In this document: piece after piece, positions 4,693-58,757 of the stretch
How the letters are laid out: every line of letters starts with the position of its first letter
Position numbering within the stretch: the stretch's first letter is position 1
NCBI GenBank assembly: GCA_038087875.1
Contig: CM075987.1
Span: 24,368,001-24,432,000 of the forward strand
Direction of reading: 5' to 3'
DNA: 64,000 nucleotides
Source of the DNA: Malacoraja senta
Taxonomy: Eukaryota
Notes under the pieces: model-generated
Seen by the model: only the letters and a program-made list of their open reading frames with translations
The model's database searches: none
Told to the model about the DNA's origin: nothing
Translations under genes and position numbers: made by a program

Positions 4693-7600
4693 AACGTTGT
4701 AAGCACCCTTTATGGGTGACTATTTGCAATAGCTTGGGTAAGCAGGCAGAGAGTTTCACTGCGACTTATCACAGGTGACAATAAAGTATTCAATTCAATT
4801 CGATTCAATGTGCCAGCGTTCAGCTGTTGATGGCTAAATCTGTGTTTATCCTCTGTCTGCAGAGAAAAGTTCCATCAGGCGGAGGGAACAGTTTCACGTC
4901 CAGAGATGTTGCCATGTCCCAGAACAACTAAGGGCATTCACAGAGGAACTTGTGTAGTGTGTAACTGGCGTAGGCGACGAGGTCTGGCATCAGTACTTTC
5001 AAATACCTCAGCTGAAGGCTGTGGGTTAAGTTTGTCGTACACACAAGAATCAACAACTTTCATTATGTACCACCTTTTGCTTTGAGGGACGTCCTTCACA
5101 GGGGTGCCATCAGGCCAGTAGCTACACTATAATGAAGTAAAAGTCAATAGACAATAGGTGCGATCATGGCTGACCATCCCCAATCAGTACCCCGTTCCTG
5201 CCTTCTCCCCATATCCCCTCACTCCGCTATTTTCAAGAGATCTATCTAGCTCTCTCTTGAAAGCATCCAGAGAACCGGCCTCCACCGCCCTCTGAGGCAG
5301 AGAATTCCACAGACTCACCACTCTCTGTGAGTAAAAGTGTTTCCTCGTCTCCGTTCTAAATGGCTTACTCCTTATTCTTAAACTGTGGCCCCTGGTTCTG
5401 GACTCCCCCCAACATCGGGAACATGTTTCCTGCCTCTAGTGTGTCCGGCATAGTGGCACAGCTAATCAAACCATTGTCTCCCAGCTCCAGCCACGCAATT
5501 CATGGCGCAGCTGGTAAGAGTCGCTGCCTCACAGCGCCAGAGGTCCGGGTTCGATCCTGACCACGGCTGCTGTCTGTAGGGAGTTTGTACCTTCTCCCCC
5601 TGACCAGGTTGGGTTTCCACCGGGTGCTTCGGTTTCCTCCCACATCCAAAGACACGGAGGTTGGAACTATAAATTGTCCCGAGTGTGCAGGCGAGCGATA
5701 GAAATGGAGGTGGGAAGTGGGGGAGTTGATTAGAATGAGGCATGAAAATAAACAATGGGGGTTCATGTAGCATTAGTTTAAGAGGGAAGTTTCTTAGGTT
5801 TCAGTTTAGTTTATCATCATGTGCAACGAGGTACAGTGAAAAGCTTTTGCTGCCTGCTAACCAGTCAGCGGAAAGACAATACATGATTACAATCGAGCCG
5901 TCCACAGTGTACAGATGCATGATAGGTGAAAGGCTTGGATAGAGTGGATGTGGAGAAGACGTTTCCACTGGTGGGAGAGTCTAGGACTAGAGGTCATGGC
6001 CTCAGAATTAAAGGATGTGCTTTTAGGTAGGCGATGTGAAATTTATTTCGTCAGAGGGTGGTGAATGTGGAATTCTTTGCCACAGACGGCTGAAGTGGCC
6101 GTCAGTGGATATTTTAAAGGAAGAGATAGATAGATTCTTGATTAGTACGGGTGTCAGAGGTGATGGGGAGAAGGCAGGAGAATGGGGTTAGGAGGGAGAG
6201 ATAGAATGGCAGAGTAGACTTGATGGGCCGAATGGCCTAATTCTACTCCTATTCCTTATAACTAGAATAACATGGGTAATGTTTAGTGCAAGATAAAGTC
6301 CAGTAAAGTCCCGATCAGAGATTAAGTAAGAAAGACTGCTGTTGTTAGAGTAAAGATCTATAAGATTGGAGCCATTGTAATGCGTGATTGCAGATTCACT
6401 TCTGTGACCAGCACACAAAGAGGCGCCCGGCTCGGGCGCCATCTTGGATCATGAAGTTAATAGTCACTATGGATCCAGTGGGTCAGAGGGCCTGTTTCCA
6501 TGCTGTCGTGGTCACCGAGGTCACGTGGTCAAAGGGATCTGGATTTAAAAGATGATGTTAAAGGAAGAAAAGAAGGTGGCGAGTTTTGGTGACAACTGGG
6601 CAGTCACGGAGGCGCAGCGGTAGAGTTGCTGCCTTACAGCGAATGCAGTGCCGGAGACCCGGGTTCGATCCCGACCACGGGTGCTGTCTGTACGGAGTTT
6701 GTACGCTCTCCACGTGATCCGCGTGGGTTTTCTCCGAGATCTTCGGTTTCCTCCCACACTCCAAAAACGTACAGGGTTGTAGGTGAATTGGTTTGGTAAA
6801 TGTGACAAGACACCCATTCCTTACAAATCAGGCCAATTGTAGTTTAGAGATACAGCATGGAAATAGGCCCTTCAGCCCACTGAGCCAGTGATCACCCATA
6901 CACTAGTTCCATTCTACACTCTAGGGTCAACTTACAGAAGCCAATGAACCTGCACGTCTGTGGAGTGTTGGAGCGGGTAGTTTTAGGAAAGAGATGAGGA
7001 AGAATGTCTTTAGTCAGAGGGTGGTGAATCTGTGGAATTCTTTGCCACAAAAGGCTGTGGAGGCCAAGTCAATGTATATTTTTAAGGCAGAGATTGATAC
7101 ATTCTTGATTAGTACGGGTGTCTTGGTTCTTGGTCCTCCAAAATATTCCAAATGGAATTTAAACTGGAGGTGGTGGAGGGAGGACTTAAGCCAGAAAGGG
7201 TTCAGGAGTTATGGGGAGAAGGCAGGAGAATGGGGTTGAGAGGTAAAGTCATGATTGAATGACAGAGTCGACACAATGGGCCGAATGGCCTGATTTTGTT
7301 TCTACCGCTTGTGAACTTATGAAACCGAAGCACCTGGAGAAAACCCACGCAGTCACGGGGAGAACGTACAAACTGCGGACAGACATACGTAGTCAGAATC
7401 GAACCCAAGTCTCTGGCGCTGTGAGGCAGCAACTCTACCAACTTGCCGTCCTTCAGAACGTTAGAGAAAGAGATGAGGATTTCAAGAGGGTTAAGGCTAA
7501 GGCAGAAATCTGTAAAGTTACCAAAACACAAACAGGCATTTAGTAGGAGAAATGCTTGTTAAAAACAGGAATGATATTTGGGAGCCCCTGATAGTATATA

Positions 7601-13148: not shown

Positions 13149-13386
13149 TCACCACAATGTGCCGTCTCCGTAGATGTTGCGGGGGACAGACATGAGCTTC
13201 TCGTCGCAAGTCACCTTTGCATCGTGTAAGGTGCTGTACCAGACCATCCCCGTGGGTCTGGTCTCTTCCATTCGACAGATGAAGTAGAGAACTGAGTCCA
13301 TCTGGCTCTGAATATAGGCACTGCGTAGCAATGATGCACAGCGGTCACTTATGCTGTCCAGCCGTTTTAGAATCAAGTGCGATTTT
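13149..13386 (-). CDS. ASTN2: Astrotactin-2-type gene, terminal coding exon (238 bp including TGA)
   Basis: ctttcatttcttaccacAG|A AAA TCG CAC... translates to (R)KSHLILKRLDSISDRCASLLRSAYIQSQMDSVLYFICRMEETRPTGMVWYSTLHDAKVTCDEKLMSVPRNIYGDGTLW*. It matches the recalled ASTN2 C-terminus (LLRSAYIQS, GMVWYS, TCEEK, RNTYG) better than ASTN1. Confidence 0.92.
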
Positions 13387-13793
13387 CTGTGGTAAGAAAT
13401 GAAAGAGGAAGGAAAAGACAGATATGATTACAATATTCTGTCATCATAATCATCATAATCATACTTTATTAGCCAAGTATGTTTTGCCACATACGAGGAA
13501 TTTGCCATACAGTCATACCAATAAAAAGCAACAGAACACACAAGCTACATTTTAACATAAACATCCACCACAGTGACTCCTCCACATTCCTCACTGTGAT
13601 GGAAGGCAAAACAAAAGTTCAATCTCTTCCCTTCTTTGTTCTGCCGCGCGCGGTCGGGGGCCTCGAGCCTTCTGCGTCGTTTGGAGCTCCCGACACCGGT
13701 CTCTACCCGAGACTGCGAGATTGTTTTGCAATAGAGAATTGAGCTTAATATTTTCACTTCCATATTTCATGATTAGCTCTCAACACAAAATAC

Positions 13794-25856: not shown

Positions 25857-27190
25857 ATAGAAACATAGAAACATAGAAAATAGGTGCAGGAGTAGGCCAT
25901 TCGGCCCTTCGAGCCTGCACCGCCATTCAATATGATCATGGCTAATCATCCAACTCAGTATCCTGTACCTGCCTGCTCTCCATACCCCCTGATCCCTTTA
26001 GCCACAAGGGCCACATCTAACTCCCTCTTAAAGATAGCCAATGAACTGGCCTCAACTACCTTCTGTGGCAGAGAATTCCAGAGATTCACCACTCTCTGTG
26101 TAAAAAATGTTTTTCTCATCTCGGTCCTAAAAGATTTCCCCTTTATCCTTAAACTGTGACCCCTTGTCCTGGACTTCCCCAACATCGGGAACAATCATCC
26201 TGCATCTAGCCTGTCCAACCCCTTAAGAATTTTGTAAGTTTCTGTAAGATCCCTCCTCAATCATCTAAATTCTAGCGAGTACAAGCCAAGTCTATCCAGT
26301 CTTTCTTCATATGAAAGTCCTGACATCCCAGGAATCAGTCTGGTGAACCTTCTCTGTACTCCCTCTATGGCAAGAATGTCTTTCCTCTGATTTGGAGACC
26401 AAAACTGTACGCAATACTCCAGGTGTGGTCTCACCAAGACCCTGTACAACTGCAGTAGAACCTCCCTGCTCCTATACTCAAATCCTTTTGCTATGAATGC
26501 TAACATACCATTCGCTTTCTTCACTGCCTGCTGCACCTTCATGCCTTCTTTCAATGATTGGTGTACCATGACACCCAGGTCTCGCTGCATCTCCCCTTTT
26601 CCTAATCGGCCACCATTCAGATAATAGTCTACTTTCCTGTTTTTGCCACCAAAGTGGATAACCTCACATTTATCCACATTATACTGCATCTGCCATGCAT
26701 TTGCCCACTCACCCAGCCTATCCAAGTCACCTTGCAGCCTCCTAGCATCCACCTCACAGCTAACACTGCCCCCCAGCTTCATGTCATCCGCAAACTTGGA
26801 GATGTTGCATTCAATTCCCTCGTCCAAATCATTAATATATATTGTAAATAGCTGGGGTCCCAGCACTGAGCCTTGCGGTACCCCACTAGTCACTGCCTGC
26901 CATTCTGAAAAGGACCCGTTTACTCCTACTCTTTGCTTCCTGTTTGCCAGCCAGTTCTCTATCCACATCAATACTGAACCCCCAATACCGTGTGCTTTAA
27001 GTTTGTATACTAATCTCTTATGTGGGACCTTGTCGAAAGCCTTCTGAAAGTCCAGATATAACACATCCACTGGTTCTCCCTTATCCACTCTACTAGTTAC
27101 ATCCTCAAAAAAGTCTATAAGATTCGTCAGATATGATTTACCTTTCGTAAATCCATGCTGACTTTGTCCAATGATTTCACCACTTCCAGT
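25857..27190 (-). mobile_element. CR1 LINE, 5'-truncated, with long open RT segment
   Basis: 312-aa ORF with [30 protein letters not shown] and KFADD; (atagaaac)n tail. Confidence 0.97.
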
Positions 27191-27924
27191 GTTATTCACA
27201 GCTCAGACTGAGAATTGCAACCTCTCGCTCCCCCCATTTTGCAGAGAACTGAGGCACCTCCACACTTCTGGGTTTTATAGTCCCTCTGGAAGGGGTGTGG
27301 CCTTCAGGAGAGAGAATCTCAACATTTTTAAAACACTAATAACTCTTTTATTTTTCATCGATGGGAAAAATCCTCTTATCCTGCACAGCGGAGGGGGGCT
27401 CTGAGTAAGATGGCCAAAAATCACAGCCGTAAGTGGCAGCGTTTTTTCTAAAACCAATATACAGTGCAACAGGAAGTGGGCAAGATGAGACTTTTAGTAA
27501 TATAGATACACACACCTACATACACACCAGCTTAGAACTGCTATATTTGATTATTTTCTGTTGTGCTGTTGGCAACATGTCGCCACGGACATCCTTTGAA
27601 TCCTGGTCCCAGATGCTTGACTTCAGTTGATAAGATATTATTAGCTGACGCTCTCAATAAATAGCAGAGCAGGATGTTTTTTCGTTATTAAACATGCAAG
27701 GACGAGTCTCGTTGAGCAGAGGCTGTTGTCAGTGCTCTGTTTTAGCAACTTTTATTACTTTTCTAATTGTACTATCAGCAGTTTTGAACTTCAGAGATTT
27801 TACAGCTAAAGTAGACAGTAATTTTGCTAACTGGAACTGATGATTTTCTCATGGTTAATGGTAAGGTTGAAACGGGTGCTTAAAATTAGAATTCAAAGTG
27901 ATTAAACCAAGGACTGGCACATTT

Positions 27925-29034: not shown

Positions 29035-29497
29035 TAACGCAGCGAATTGTGACCATCACACAAACCAACCTCCCTTCCATTGACTACATTTATACCTCAC
29101 GTTGCCTCGGCAAGGCCAGCAGCATAATCAAGGACGAGTCACACCCTGGCCACTCCCTCTTCTCCCCTCTCCCATTGGACAAAAGTGTGAAAACGCACTC
29201 CTCCAGATTCAGGGACAGTTTCTTCCCAGCTGTTATCAGGCAACTGAATCATCCTACCACAACCAGAGAGCAGTGCTGAACTACTATCTACCTCACTGGT
29301 GACCCTCGGATTATCTTTGATCGGACTTTGCTGTCTTTACCTTGCAGTAAACGTTATTCCCTTATCTATCTATACACTGCAAATGGCTTGATTGTAATCA
29401 AGTATTGTCTTTCCACTGACTGGATAGCATGCACTAATAAAAGCTTTTCACTGTACCTCGGTACATGTGACAATAGACGAGACTAAACCAAACTAAA
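29035..29497 (+). mobile_element. Rex1/Babar-like LINE 3' end
   Basis: LPSIDYIYTSRCLGKASSIIKDESHPGHSLFSPLP...RFRDSFFPAVIRQLN; 3'UTR ending cactgtacctcggtacatgtgacaata. Confidence 0.8.
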
Positions 29498-46963: not shown

Positions 46964-47078
46964 GGGGTGGGAGATTGCAACCTTCACGTGGTCCACCCTG
47001 TTTCGACTAATGCGACATGCACAAACAAAAGATCAAATAGAACAAGTTGACCAACTTTAGGCTGTGCATGCCATAGGC
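46964..47078 (+). mobile_element. Second, more decayed copy of the HDV-ribozyme short retroelement
   Basis: Homologous to 48427-48573. P1 GGGGTGG/CCACCCT pairs fully and J4/2 is CTAA. 9-bp TSD aatcttata at 46944-46952 and 47079-47087. Confidence 0.8.
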
Positions 47079-47203
47079 AATCTTATACTTCAGTCCTCCA
47101 TCTGTATACCGGGATGAATTTCATTCTAATATTTATAGATTAGCCTTTTTCAGTCCCCTTTAACAGCTGTTTGTAGCCAAATCAAATACCTGGGTAATGC
47201 TTC

Positions 47204-47745: not shown

Positions 47746-48426
47746 GCGGGCAATGATGTTTGTTCACCAAGACAGACACAAAATGCTGAAGTCACTCAAC
47801 GGGTTAGGCAGCATCTAAACGACCAGAATAATACTTGACTTGACTTGACTTGAGCATGTCTGGAGAACATGAATAGTGACGTTTCGTGAAGGGACCCATC
47901 TTGGGTCCCGACCTGTAATGTCATCTATCCATGTTCTGCATTTTGTGTCTTTCACTGGTAAACCAACACCCGCTGTTTCTCGTATCTCGTACAGATCCGC
48001 CACCAATTTTCCAGCTACTGGTGGTCGAGTCCCCCCCCCCCCTCCTCCCTCTTAATCCGGACAAAATCTTCCCCCCAAAAATCCCCCAGAAAATGTGGCG
48101 CCTAGGCCAAGTGAGGCGGCTGATCCCTACCTCAATTGGACTTCTGCGCCGATCGGCGGGCCGAATTTGCCACCTGCGGCCGGGGCTATGGAACTCTAGA
48201 CTGGCCGCAGCCGGCAAATCCATTCCCATAGCCACAACAGCAGCCGACTTTATCAGGCAACAGAACCATCCTACCGCAACCAGAGAGCAGTCGTGAACTG
48301 CTATCTACCTCATCGAGGACCGTCGGACTATCTTGGATCAGACCTCGCTGGCTTTACCTTGCAGTAAACGTGATTCCCTTATCATGTATCTGTACATGTG
48401 AATGGCTCATTGTAATCACCTATTGT

Positions 48427-48480
48427 GGGGGGGGAGATTGCAACCTTCACGTGGTCCGCCCTGTTTCGACGAATGCAATC
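48427..48480 (+). ncRNA. Minimal HDV-like (double pseudoknot) ribozyme, predicted
   Basis: P1 GGGGGGG/CCGCCCT (one mismatch, G.U first pair); P2 GATTGCA/TGCAATC; P3 ACC/GGT; L3 TTCACGT; P4 reduced to about GTTTCGA; J4/2 CGAA with putative catalytic C48470. Confidence 0.75.
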
Positions 48481-48573
48481 AACCTGGCGTGCACAATCAA
48501 ATAAGATCAAATAGAACAAGTTGTCCTACAACTTTAGGCTGTGCACGCCATACGCAAGAAGAAGAAGAAGAAG
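48427..48573 (+). mobile_element. Short non-autonomous retroelement with 5' HDV-like ribozyme fold and (GAA)n tail
   Basis: 13-bp TSD aatcac(c/g)tattgt at 48414-48426 and 48574-48586. The ribozyme fold spans 48427-48480 and the tail is ccatacgc(aag)n. It is inserted into a Rex1-like 3'UTR. Confidence 0.85.
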
Positions 48574-48834
48574 AATCACGTATTGTCTTTCCGCTGACTG
48601 GTTAACACGCAACAAAGGCTTTTCACTGTACCTCGGTACACGTGACAATAAACTAAACAGAACTGACAACTGACTTTGCGGGCCGGTATCTCGGCCCCCA
48701 AGGAGGTGATCCCCGTTGGTCTGGCAAAACGGATAATCCACCTTGCTGTCCTTGTGAAAGCTTTTAGTGACGTTTCAAGATTATATTTTTCAGAATGTAG
48801 AGAGAGGATTTTTCCACTAGTGAGAGAGTCTAGG

Positions 48835-57066: not shown

Positions 57067-58578
57067 ACTAACGGTGAAACAAAAATTCTAGGAGCAGAAT
57101 TAGGCCATTCGGCCCATCAAGTCTACTCCGCCATCCAATCATGGCTGATCTATCTATCCCTCCCAACCCCATTCTCCTGCCTTCTCCCCATAACCCCCGA
57201 CACCCGTACTGATCAAGAATCTATCTATCTCCGCCTTAACAATATCCATTGACTTGACCTCCGCAGCCATAAATATGAAAAGAGTAAAAGAAGATAAACA
57301 GCTCAAAAGAAACAGGTATTAAAAATTGAGCAAAGGAGAACTGAAAACACACAATAAACTTTCGACCAAGGAAAATACGTTTCAAAAGGAAATAGTACAA
57401 TATTTGCGAATTGTTTCCAGGTATAGGAAAAGTCAAAGTTTGGAGTCGTAAATGTCAAATAACCAAGATGGGAATTTAATAAAATCTCCATTGCAAAAGT
57501 GGGGTTAAAATGTGGAGGCAACTAACTATTGGGACAACTAGTTAAGGCAAATACCGTGGATGCATTAAAGAGGAAGTTGGATAATGACAAGATGGAGAAA
57601 TGAACAGAAGGTATGCTGATCGGATTAGCTGGAAGCAGAGTAAAAGGAAGCTTGTGCCAAGCATAAACAAGGCTATCAACCAGTTGGGCAGAATTGTCTG
57701 ATCCTGTATCTTAATCCCCTTGTAAATTAAATCCAATAAATTTGAGATTCGTGTAGCCTGACTCTTTAGTTTTGGTTTAGCACGGAAACAAGCCCATCAG
57801 CCCACCGAGTCCGTACTGGCCAGCAATCCCGCACACCAACACTATCCTACACACACTGGGGACAATTTACAACATTACCCCAGCCAATTAACATACAAAC
57901 CTGTATGTTTTTGGAGCACTATCCTGCCTCTTATACCTGTACCTTGTTGGGGCGACCCCCTCATTGAAACTTACCGAATAGTGAAAAACCCGGATAGAGT
58001 GGATGTGGAGAAGATTTTTCCACTTGTGGGAGAGTCTTGGACCAGGGGTTAAAGCCTCAGAATTAAAGGACATTCCTTTAGGAAGGAGATGAGAAGGAAT
58101 GTATTTTGTCAGAGGGTGGTGAATCCGTGGAATTCATTGCCACAGAAGGCTGTGGAGGCTAAGTCAATGGATTTTCTTTAAGGCAGAGATAGATAGATTC
58201 TTGATCAGTACGGGTGTCAGTGGTTATGGGGAGAAGGCAGGAGAATGGGGTTAAGAGTGAAAGATAGATCAGCTATGCTTGAATGGCGGAGTAGATTTGA
58301 TGGGCCGAATGGCCTAATTCTGCGCCTATCACTTATGAAATTATGAACTTATTTTAGATTTGTAAAACAAAAACACCTCTGAAATGTAACAGCACATCAA
58401 AGATGAAGAAGGGTCTCGACCCAAATTGTCATCCATTCCTTCTCTCCAGAGATGCTGCCTGTCCGGTTGAGTTACTCCAGCTTATTGTCTGTATGTTCGG
58501 GTTAAGCCAGCATCTGCAGTTCCTTCCTAAACGTCAAAGCAGAGAGGATGAAGATAAAGAGAAGGAAAGGGAACTTAC

Positions 58579-58679
58579 CTTCAGCTTTGATGTCGTCAAC
58601 CAGTTGGCAGGTTGTTCGTGTGGTGACTGCACTTGGTTCCGATCTCCTCCCTCTGCTGTCCAAGGCATACAGTGTAAAC
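58579..58679 (-). CDS. ASTN2: Astrotactin-2-type gene, third-from-last coding exon (101 bp; end of FN3 region)
   Basis: Minus strand reads ttattgccttAG|G TTT ACA CTG...AAA GCT GAA G|GTaagt, translating to FTLYALDSRGRRSEPSAVTTRTTCQLVDDIKAE. This resembles recalled ASTN2 FTLYAVDTRGRHSELSTVTLRTACPLVDDNKAE. The terminal G joins AA of the next exon to give GAA. Confidence 0.9.
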
Positions 58680-58757
58680 CTAAGGCAATAACAAGACACT
58701 CGGCAGGTAAGAGATCCACTCCAAGTGTGATATTTAACATCCACAGCACACCTTCAT

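Follow-up and report, generated by a model that had tools for sequence, protein, structure and literature searches.

Ribozymes that resemble the self-cleaving ribozyme of the hepatitis delta virus (HDV) have been described at the very start of several retroelements without long terminal repeats (non-LTR elements). In Trypanosoma cruzi, the HDV-like ribozyme Pr77 makes up the first nucleotides of the dispersed element L1Tc, also heads its non-autonomous partner NARTc, and is reported to free the element from co-transcripts (PMC3185411, PMC3383444). A 5' HDV-like ribozyme likewise sets the 5' end of R2, whose short internally deleted copies (SIDEs) are described as using the enzyme in trans (PMC3414825, PMC6765202). 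According to the latter source, some short interspersed nuclear elements (SINEs) use HDV-like ribozymes, and in some genomes intergenic HDV-like copies number in the hundreds and have conserved sequence downstream. Minimal forms that lack the helix P4 are reported to have been found first in metagenomes, where their origin and role are left open (10.1101/2023.06.13.544163). In this study, we analyse 64,000 nucleotides of the genome of the vertebrate Malacoraja senta (GenBank assembly GCA_038087875.1, contig CM075987.1, positions 24,368,001 to 24,432,000; hereafter the window, with positions counted from its first letter) and in particular a 147-bp insertion at 48427-48573 on the plus strand, which a preliminary description had taken for a ribozyme-headed retroelement.

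We consider it likely that these 147 bp are a copy of a young and abundant family of short, non-coding, SINE-like non-LTR elements that has no RNA polymerase III (Pol III) promoter and carries a minimal HDV-like ribozyme as its head, and this head probably cuts the element RNA free at its first base. The kind of element would be one already known, namely the ribozyme-headed, non-autonomous non-LTR elements; what stands out here is the minimal form of the predicted ribozyme, the vertebrate host and the copy number.

The head of the element

The supplement on the program RNArobo (PMC4870747) gives the descriptors used there for finding HDV-like ribozymes, among them hdv-looseP4. As set out in that supplement, the 5' half consists of a P1 starting with G or R paired to Y, a J1/2 of 1-51 nt and a P2 of 6 bp, the core of a P3 of 3 Watson-Crick bp, an L3 of the form TYYHCGY and a P1' directly after P3', and the 3' half of a J1/4 RN, a loose P4 region of 4-54 nt and a CNRA J4/2 directly before P2'. 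Positions 1-54 of the family majority sequence contain every one of these elements and present, with a linker before J4/2, the strand order of the nested double pseudoknot: GGGGTGG (P1), GA (J1/2), GATTGCA (P2), ACC (P3), TTCACGT (L3), GGT (P3'), CCGCCCT (P1'), GT (J1/4), TTCGA (linker), CGAA (J4/2) and TGCAATC (P2').

In the window copy, the 5' strand of P1 lies at 48427-48433 and reads GGGGGGG, and its 3' strand lies at 48456-48462, immediately after P3 as in the descriptor. Between them are J1/2 (48434-48435, descriptor element s1; AA in a subfamily), the 5' strand of P2 (48436-48442), the Watson-Crick paired strands of P3 (48443-48445 and 48453-48455) and an L3 loop (48446-48452) that fits the published motif. 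J1/4 (48463-48464) is followed by the 5-nt linker at 48465-48469, which occupies the place of P4 (descriptor element s5, at least 4 nt required), by J4/2 (48470-48473), in which C48470 is the putative catalytic cytosine, and by the 3' strand of P2 (48474-48480), the last part of the 54-nt ribozyme. In HDV-like ribozymes P1 measures 6-7 bp, opens with a G paired to a pyrimidine and is cut just 5' of that G; cleavage is accordingly predicted just 5' of G48427, the first base of the element.

The majority P1 forms a full 7 bp (G.U, three G-C, U.G and two G-C); in the window copy, pair 1 is G.U as well, and pair 5 is a G.G mismatch. The coordinates and the pairings of P1, P2, P3, L3, CGAA and the body stem proposed beforehand were all found in the sequence, including this mismatch, and the HDV-type topology from the first G, claimed for the window copy, holds in full for the majority sequence and is one P1 pair short in the window copy. 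Position 5 was counted with a pattern carrying K at that place: among the 100 matches listed (in contig order) of 2,099 exact ones, 99 have T and 1 has G. The T5-to-G change disrupts P1, owing to which the window copy fails the strict descriptor; it is probably dead, or at best weakened.

A scripted version of hdv-looseP4 gave 47 matches in 712,956 bases (the window and the retrieved loci, designated by L numbers, on both strands), all 47 of them inside family copies, and none in 20 Mb of first-order Markov random sequence. With every match in real DNA falling inside a family copy, and none at all in random sequence, the fit of the head is far beyond chance. An ordinary repeat in which such pairings arose by chance might be suspected from the P1 mismatch, the unremarkable fold and the lack of an Rfam match in the window copy; with no match outside the family in these 713 kb of real DNA, a match that begins at the first base defined by the target-site duplication (TSD), and a majority sequence that repairs the mismatch, we regard this explanation as negligible.

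Sequence variation among the copies is in modest agreement with constraint on a ribozyme. In contigs of three organisms, the only ribozyme positions with variants at 10% or more are 48458, 48468 and 48471; G48468, in the linker, varies freely, as does the hairpin loop base 48527 of the body (A, G, C or T). We also tallied the four CpG sites of the ribozyme by a pattern with N at each, counting by hand the 100 copies listed among 5,010 matches. L3 (C24/G25) reads CG in 82, TG in 7, CA in 6, AG in 3 and CC in 2; P1' (C31/G32) CG in 58, CA in 31, TG in 6, TA in 3 and AG in 2; the linker (C41/G42) CG in 77, CA in 16 and TG in 7; and J4/2 (C44/G45) CG in 54, CT in 26, CA in 11, TG in 5, CC in 3 and GA in 1. 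The C of J4/2 is thus kept in 94 of the 100 listed copies; at the N position, 54 have G, 26 T, 11 A and 3 C. All variants at 11% or more in this list (G32A, 31; G45T, 26; G42A, 16; G45A, 11) are tolerated by the descriptor, G32A turning a U.G pair into U-A, G42A lying in the linker and the two G45 changes falling on the N of CNRA, while of all 162 single substitutions only 54 are tolerated. This tolerance of the frequent variants would modestly favour constraint on a ribozyme; the tally lends it weak support, as minor variants are similarly rare whether the descriptor tolerates them or not.

Several observations weigh against a working ribozyme. The majority sequence has no P4 helix, only the TTCGA linker, and P1.1 is restricted to a single possible Watson-Crick pair, C48448 (C22) with G48463 (G37). 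Descriptor-breaking variants occur at 2-7 per 100 listed copies (C24T 7, G25A 6, C44T 5, C24A 3, G25C 2), and G25C is present in 6 of the 55 copies of an alignment biased towards window-like copies, so that a minor lineage may have expanded despite lacking an intact L3. The 147-nt fold is unremarkable (z = -1.27, with 25 of 200 shuffles at least as stable), and shuffled 54-mers are on average more stable than the real one, for which reason energy alone proves nothing; the nested minimum free energy structure of the majority 54-mer is exactly P1 plus P3 (-12.4 kcal/mol), P2 plus P3 reaching -7.3. Within the 55 aligned copies, which are too alike to make the test informative, no covariation was detected: 91.7% of cells are paired against 91.5% in shuffles, 114 of 500 shuffles doing equally well, and in P2 97% of cells are paired. 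Finally, the Rfam covariance models, to which the preliminary description had looked for a check, gave no HDV-type match at E <= 10 for either the window copy or the majority-type copy L099. The HDV-type models of Rfam are lineage-specific, and covariance models cannot score pseudoknots.

The absence of P4 would place the head among the minimal P4-less HDV-like forms; where the earlier reading saw a P4 shrunk to a loop, we find the 5-nt linker, a length that the loose-P4 descriptor allows. The small P1.1, the missing P4 and the small lineages with an altered L3 would also suit an HDV-like fold that had lost catalysis and been kept for another role, such as a 5' binding site for the reverse transcriptase or protection of the RNA end, and the R2 protein is reported to bind a pseudoknot within its 5' ribozyme (PMC6765202). 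We think such a role improbable, considering that G1.U, the motif of L3 and the CNRA cytosine, all essential to the descriptor, are the majority state and that the element starts exactly at the predicted cleavage site.

The insertion and its family

The element at 48427-48573 opens with a run of eight G and closes with (GAA)n. It is flanked by the 13-bp TSD that had been proposed, with AATCACCTATTGT at 48414-48426 on the left and AATCACGTATTGT at 48574-48586 on the right (plus strand), identical in 12 of 13 bases; the tail occupies about 48558 to 48573, with 2 nt of ambiguity where it meets the right TSD. The insertion is precise and its boundaries are confirmed, because four paralogous copies of the host repeat (window 29284-29475, window 5800-5924, and loci L002 and L024) are empty sites, without the 147 bp and with a single 13-mer. 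The host is itself another interspersed repeat (48300-48426 and 48574-48700), its right part ending ...CACTGTACCTCGGTACACGTGACAATAAACTAAAC, and it has several further copies in the window and the loci, including the two window copies just named.

Behind the head lies a structured body at 48485-48550, predicted to fold into an 11-bp stem (48485-95 with 48540-50) around a hairpin at 48518-34 and presumed to be a recognition module for the reverse transcriptase. A search with the 147 nt gave 41 matches at 95-100% identity in the 1.94-Gb assembly, and of the 40 long ones 33 begin at query base 1 and 7 at bases 2-5. A 45-nt core with up to 3 mismatches has at least 7,196 matches as reported (3,598 per strand) in the same assembly, against none for the reversed core, so that the proposal of a genomic family is borne out by thousands of copies; the family is very abundant in contigs of three organisms (A, B and C).

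The 5' ends were examined in 30 loci drawn in contig order from exact core matches, a sample not selected by 5' end and including three pairs that are duplicates of each other. All 30 share the body of the element and carry a (GAA)n tail, of a length that varies between copies, with flanks that bear no relation to one another. A duplication was called in 25 loci, two of these calls being spurious and G-rich; none was found in 3, and a tail anchor was lacking in 2. In the 23 valid loci, the head at the TSD is exactly GGGGTGG in 10, ambiguous by one G in 6 and within 1-3 nt in the rest. The usual head is GGGGTGGGA, compared with GGGGGGGGA in the window copy. Both the long matches and this unselected sample therefore agree with the earlier proposal that copies start at the first G of P1. 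The absence of any open reading frame (ORF), the dispersal in many copies, the variable TSDs and the simple-repeat tail are together what is expected of a non-autonomous retroposon that depends on a long interspersed nuclear element (LINE).

A second, older copy (83% identity) lies 1.35 kb upstream of the first, at window 46964-47080 on the plus strand. Its head reads GGGGTGG and its J4/2 is of the CTAA type, and it has lost the 3' strand of P2 and any (GAA)n tail. Long G runs or tandem GGGGT-like repeats precede the head in eight loci (L002, L005, L009, L013, L024, L028, L030 and L049), reaching about 17 G at the 5' junctions, and the GGGGGGGG head of the window copy belongs to the same minority. 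These runs look like slippage or repeated copying by the reverse transcriptase at the RNA's 5' end. In one locus (L017) two copies stand head to head, at 1345-1483 on the minus and 1501-1642 on the plus strand, with their 5' ends 17 nt apart. Four pairs of loci (L091 and L092, over 1.2 kb; L049 and L050; L052 and L053; L056 and L057) are segmental or assembly duplicates, since their flanks are identical at different places or on different contigs.

Subfamilies differ strongly in the body and keep the ribozyme; the 3' stem and the last ~27 nt are common to all and the middle differs. Subfamily B (L095, L096) is ~116 nt long and retains the ribozyme and the last ~27 nt, with the inner hairpin replaced and a run of T4. 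Its signature occurs in 14 of the 82 matches to a pattern for the 3' end without the hairpin, and 8 more are near variants. A form with a 10-nt deletion carries AA as J1/2. More extreme is a composite of ~460 nt, in which an insert of ~325 nt with terminal inverted repeats (TIRs; CCCTGTCCCACGGTACGAGTTCATTC...) sits between the hairpin and the 3' stem, at the junction of ACAACTTTA and GGCTG. Its three copies (on the reverse complement of L098 at 1128-1560, L099 at 1101-1555 and L100 at 1088-1559) each have their own TSD and a GGGGTGG start, and contain runs of T5 and T7-T8; the composite has thus been retroposed at least three times. The composites show that foreign cargo of 325 nt or more can be carried through retroposition by the 5' and 3' modules alone, and this cargo delimits the minimal cis requirements of the reverse transcriptase. 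Loci L101 and L091 hold further joins between the inverted-repeat element and the family; L091 also contains a solo 54-nt ribozyme between the inverted 12-mers AGCTCGTGTAAT and ATTACACGAGCT.

Transcription, mobilization and the host gene

A canonical SINE head, that is, an internal Pol III promoter derived from tRNA, 7SL or 5S, is lacking in the element. ARAGORN found no tRNA and Rfam no family in it, and with up to 2 mismatches allowed no A or B box was found, in keeping with what had been noted from the sequence. Pol III stops at runs of four or more T, and transcription of the family by Pol III is unlikely; the retroposed T-rich variants, with their runs of T4 to T8, argue for RNA polymerase II (Pol II) transcripts. 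Because the 5' flanks of the copies are unrelated, the element does not bring an upstream promoter with it, and two options are left: read-through transcripts that are then processed at G1, or an internal promoter for Pol II.

The second of these options belongs to a wider alternative, in which the 5' module is an internal promoter (a Pol II promoter like the one in Pr77 of L1Tc, or one of an unrecognised Pol III type) that initiates at G1, the fold being a relic or secondary. A common and precise 5' end would fit a fixed start site equally well, and the 77 nt of L1Tc are described as promoter and ribozyme at once (PMC3383444). The element shows no A or B boxes and no similarity to tRNAs or Rfam families, however, a Pol III promoter of any type is hard to square with the retroposed T-rich variants, and a promoter would not by itself explain the complete fit to the HDV descriptor. 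We consider this alternative unlikely, though slightly less so than a fold kept without cleavage.

We prefer, as the likely one, a scheme in which the element consists of three modules: a 54-nt minimal HDV-like ribozyme, a variable middle, and a conserved 3' stem with a (GAA)n tail. A copy would be transcribed within a longer Pol II transcript, and the ribozyme would fold and cut just 5' of its own G1, giving an RNA that starts at the first base of the element. A reverse transcriptase acting in trans would then recognise the 3' stem and the tail and prime on the nicked target, and copying of the RNA to its 5' end would yield the target duplication of 9-15 bp. Catalytic activity and read-through transcription are what we infer from sequence here, and the borrowing of a LINE enzyme is suggested by two features only, the TSDs and the simple-repeat tail.

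What counts against this last step is that pattern, BLAST and tail searches found no LINE sharing the ribozyme or the 3' module. A pattern for the ribozyme with a non-family continuation gave 221 matches, with no recurrent LINE continuation among the 100 listed; patterns for the body without the ribozyme (64 matches) and for the 3' end without the hairpin (82) showed no recurrent LINE 3' end, their matches being mostly indel-bearing, 5'-truncated, subfamily B or composite copies and a few having unrelated upstream sequence. The same L3/P3 core with a different P1 was matched 19 times, almost always by mutated family copies, and 14 other (GAA)n tails in the window and the loci are none of them LINE-like. 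Low-stringency BLAST and the candidate loci yielded indel copies, subfamily B, the TIR composites and one rearranged solo ribozyme, and no LINE. ORF fragments that match RVT_1 (Pfam) and are LINE-like lie on the minus strand of the window at 26264-27202 (E 1e-25) and 1562-1921 (E 1e-17); they showed no nearby (GAA)n tail and nothing that links them to the family.

These searches bear on a further possibility, compatible with the mechanism proposed here, that the family arose by internal deletion from a ribozyme-headed LINE, which persists in the genome and mobilizes the family. A 5' ribozyme and a 3' end with little between them would resemble the SIDEs as described for R2 (PMC3414825), and large internal cargo is evidently tolerated. 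Against this, searches starting from the ribozyme, the 3' module and an altered P1 all led to no LINE, and we consider such a parent rather unlikely, if still a serious candidate.

The window is for the most part occupied by an astrotactin gene on the minus strand. Among 150 stop-to-stop ORFs of the window scanned with Pfam, one at 58505-58753 (minus) is an exon encoding the end of the ASTN1/2 Fn3 domain, and one at 13152-13427 (minus) an exon for the ASTN2 C-terminal hairpin together with the last part of the annexin-like domain. Since these minus-strand exons flank them, both family copies in the window are intronic and antisense, and the 48427 copy is, as had been stated, antisense to the astrotactin pre-mRNA.

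To our knowledge, vertebrate SINEs are almost always built on Pol III genes (tRNA, 7SL, 5S). It is conceivable, and we advance it tentatively as somewhat short of an even chance, that the family represents a Pol III-independent class of vertebrate SINE, recently active and with 7,000 or more copies of 95-100% identity, in which a P4-less minimal HDV-like ribozyme generates the 5' end. If so, minimal delta-like ribozymes would gain a eukaryotic genomic home, and a successful vertebrate family relying on a self-cleaving ribozyme and host read-through would widen the picture of SINEs. Sense intronic copies would then be thousands of potential self-cleavage sites in host pre-mRNAs, and an orientation bias of copies within genes would therefore be expected. 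There would also be a natural 54-nt HDV-like ribozyme to study, and the question of whether ribozyme copies shape intron content and pre-mRNA integrity.

Comparison with known systems

A literature search on ribozymes, including HDV-like ones, in sharks, skates and elasmobranchs found nothing relevant, and likewise none for fishes; in a preprint on the Greenland shark, ribozymes appear only in an RNA count. The preliminary description knew of no such element in elasmobranchs, and this search found none; the novelty is smaller than it implied, NARTc and the R2 SIDEs having already been published as HDV-like-headed non-autonomous elements (PMC6765202).

Of these, Pr77 differs from the head described here in its length (77 against 54 nt), in doubling as a promoter and in having a known LINE partner, besides the vertebrate host in our case (PMC3185411, PMC3383444). 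R2 and its SIDEs are reported to occupy a single site in the 28S ribosomal DNA and to carry a ribozyme of ~184 nt, whereas the present family is scattered, its TSDs vary and its tail is (GAA)n (PMC3414825, PMC6765202). The SINE-like elements of Schistosoma, with twister variants (PMC8501958) or hammerheads (PMC6765202), are also short, non-autonomous and equipped with a self-cleaving ribozyme, though of another class.

A close likeness in sequence is to HDV-like ribozymes of the sea urchin Strongylocentrotus purpuratus, as aligned in the supplement of PMC4870747. They have an identical P3-L3-P3 (ACC TTCACGT GGT), and share ACCTTCACGTGGT, the GGGGT start and CCCTGTT, a CNAA J4/2 and a P1.1 of 1 bp; they too are present in multiple genomic copies. 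In that alignment P2 has another sequence and is nonetheless complementary, P1 differs at positions 5-7, and the P4 region is ~14-20 nt long compared with the 5-nt linker here.

The same 15-base core occurs in 119 loci from metagenome contigs, of which three (L150, L159 and L182) fit the full descriptor, with P1 and P2 unrelated to those of the family yet complementary. As the three were selected by the descriptor, only their excess over shuffled flanks is evidence: with the flanks of the 119 loci shuffled, the mean was 0.045 passes, and none of 200 rounds reached 3. The candidate minimal HDV-like ribozyme of L159 (51 nt, positions 105-155 on the minus strand, contig Ga0079224_100000008) combines the same L3/P3 core with a J1/4 GT, a 5-nt linker and CTAA. 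In size and in the lack of a P4 domain, the head resembles the drz-Mtgn and theta ribozymes (~50-55 nt; 10.1101/2023.06.13.544163). Those are described from metagenomes and phages, beside tRNAs, with a role that is either in tRNA processing or open, whereas the one in Malacoraja senta would be the head of a retroposon in a vertebrate.

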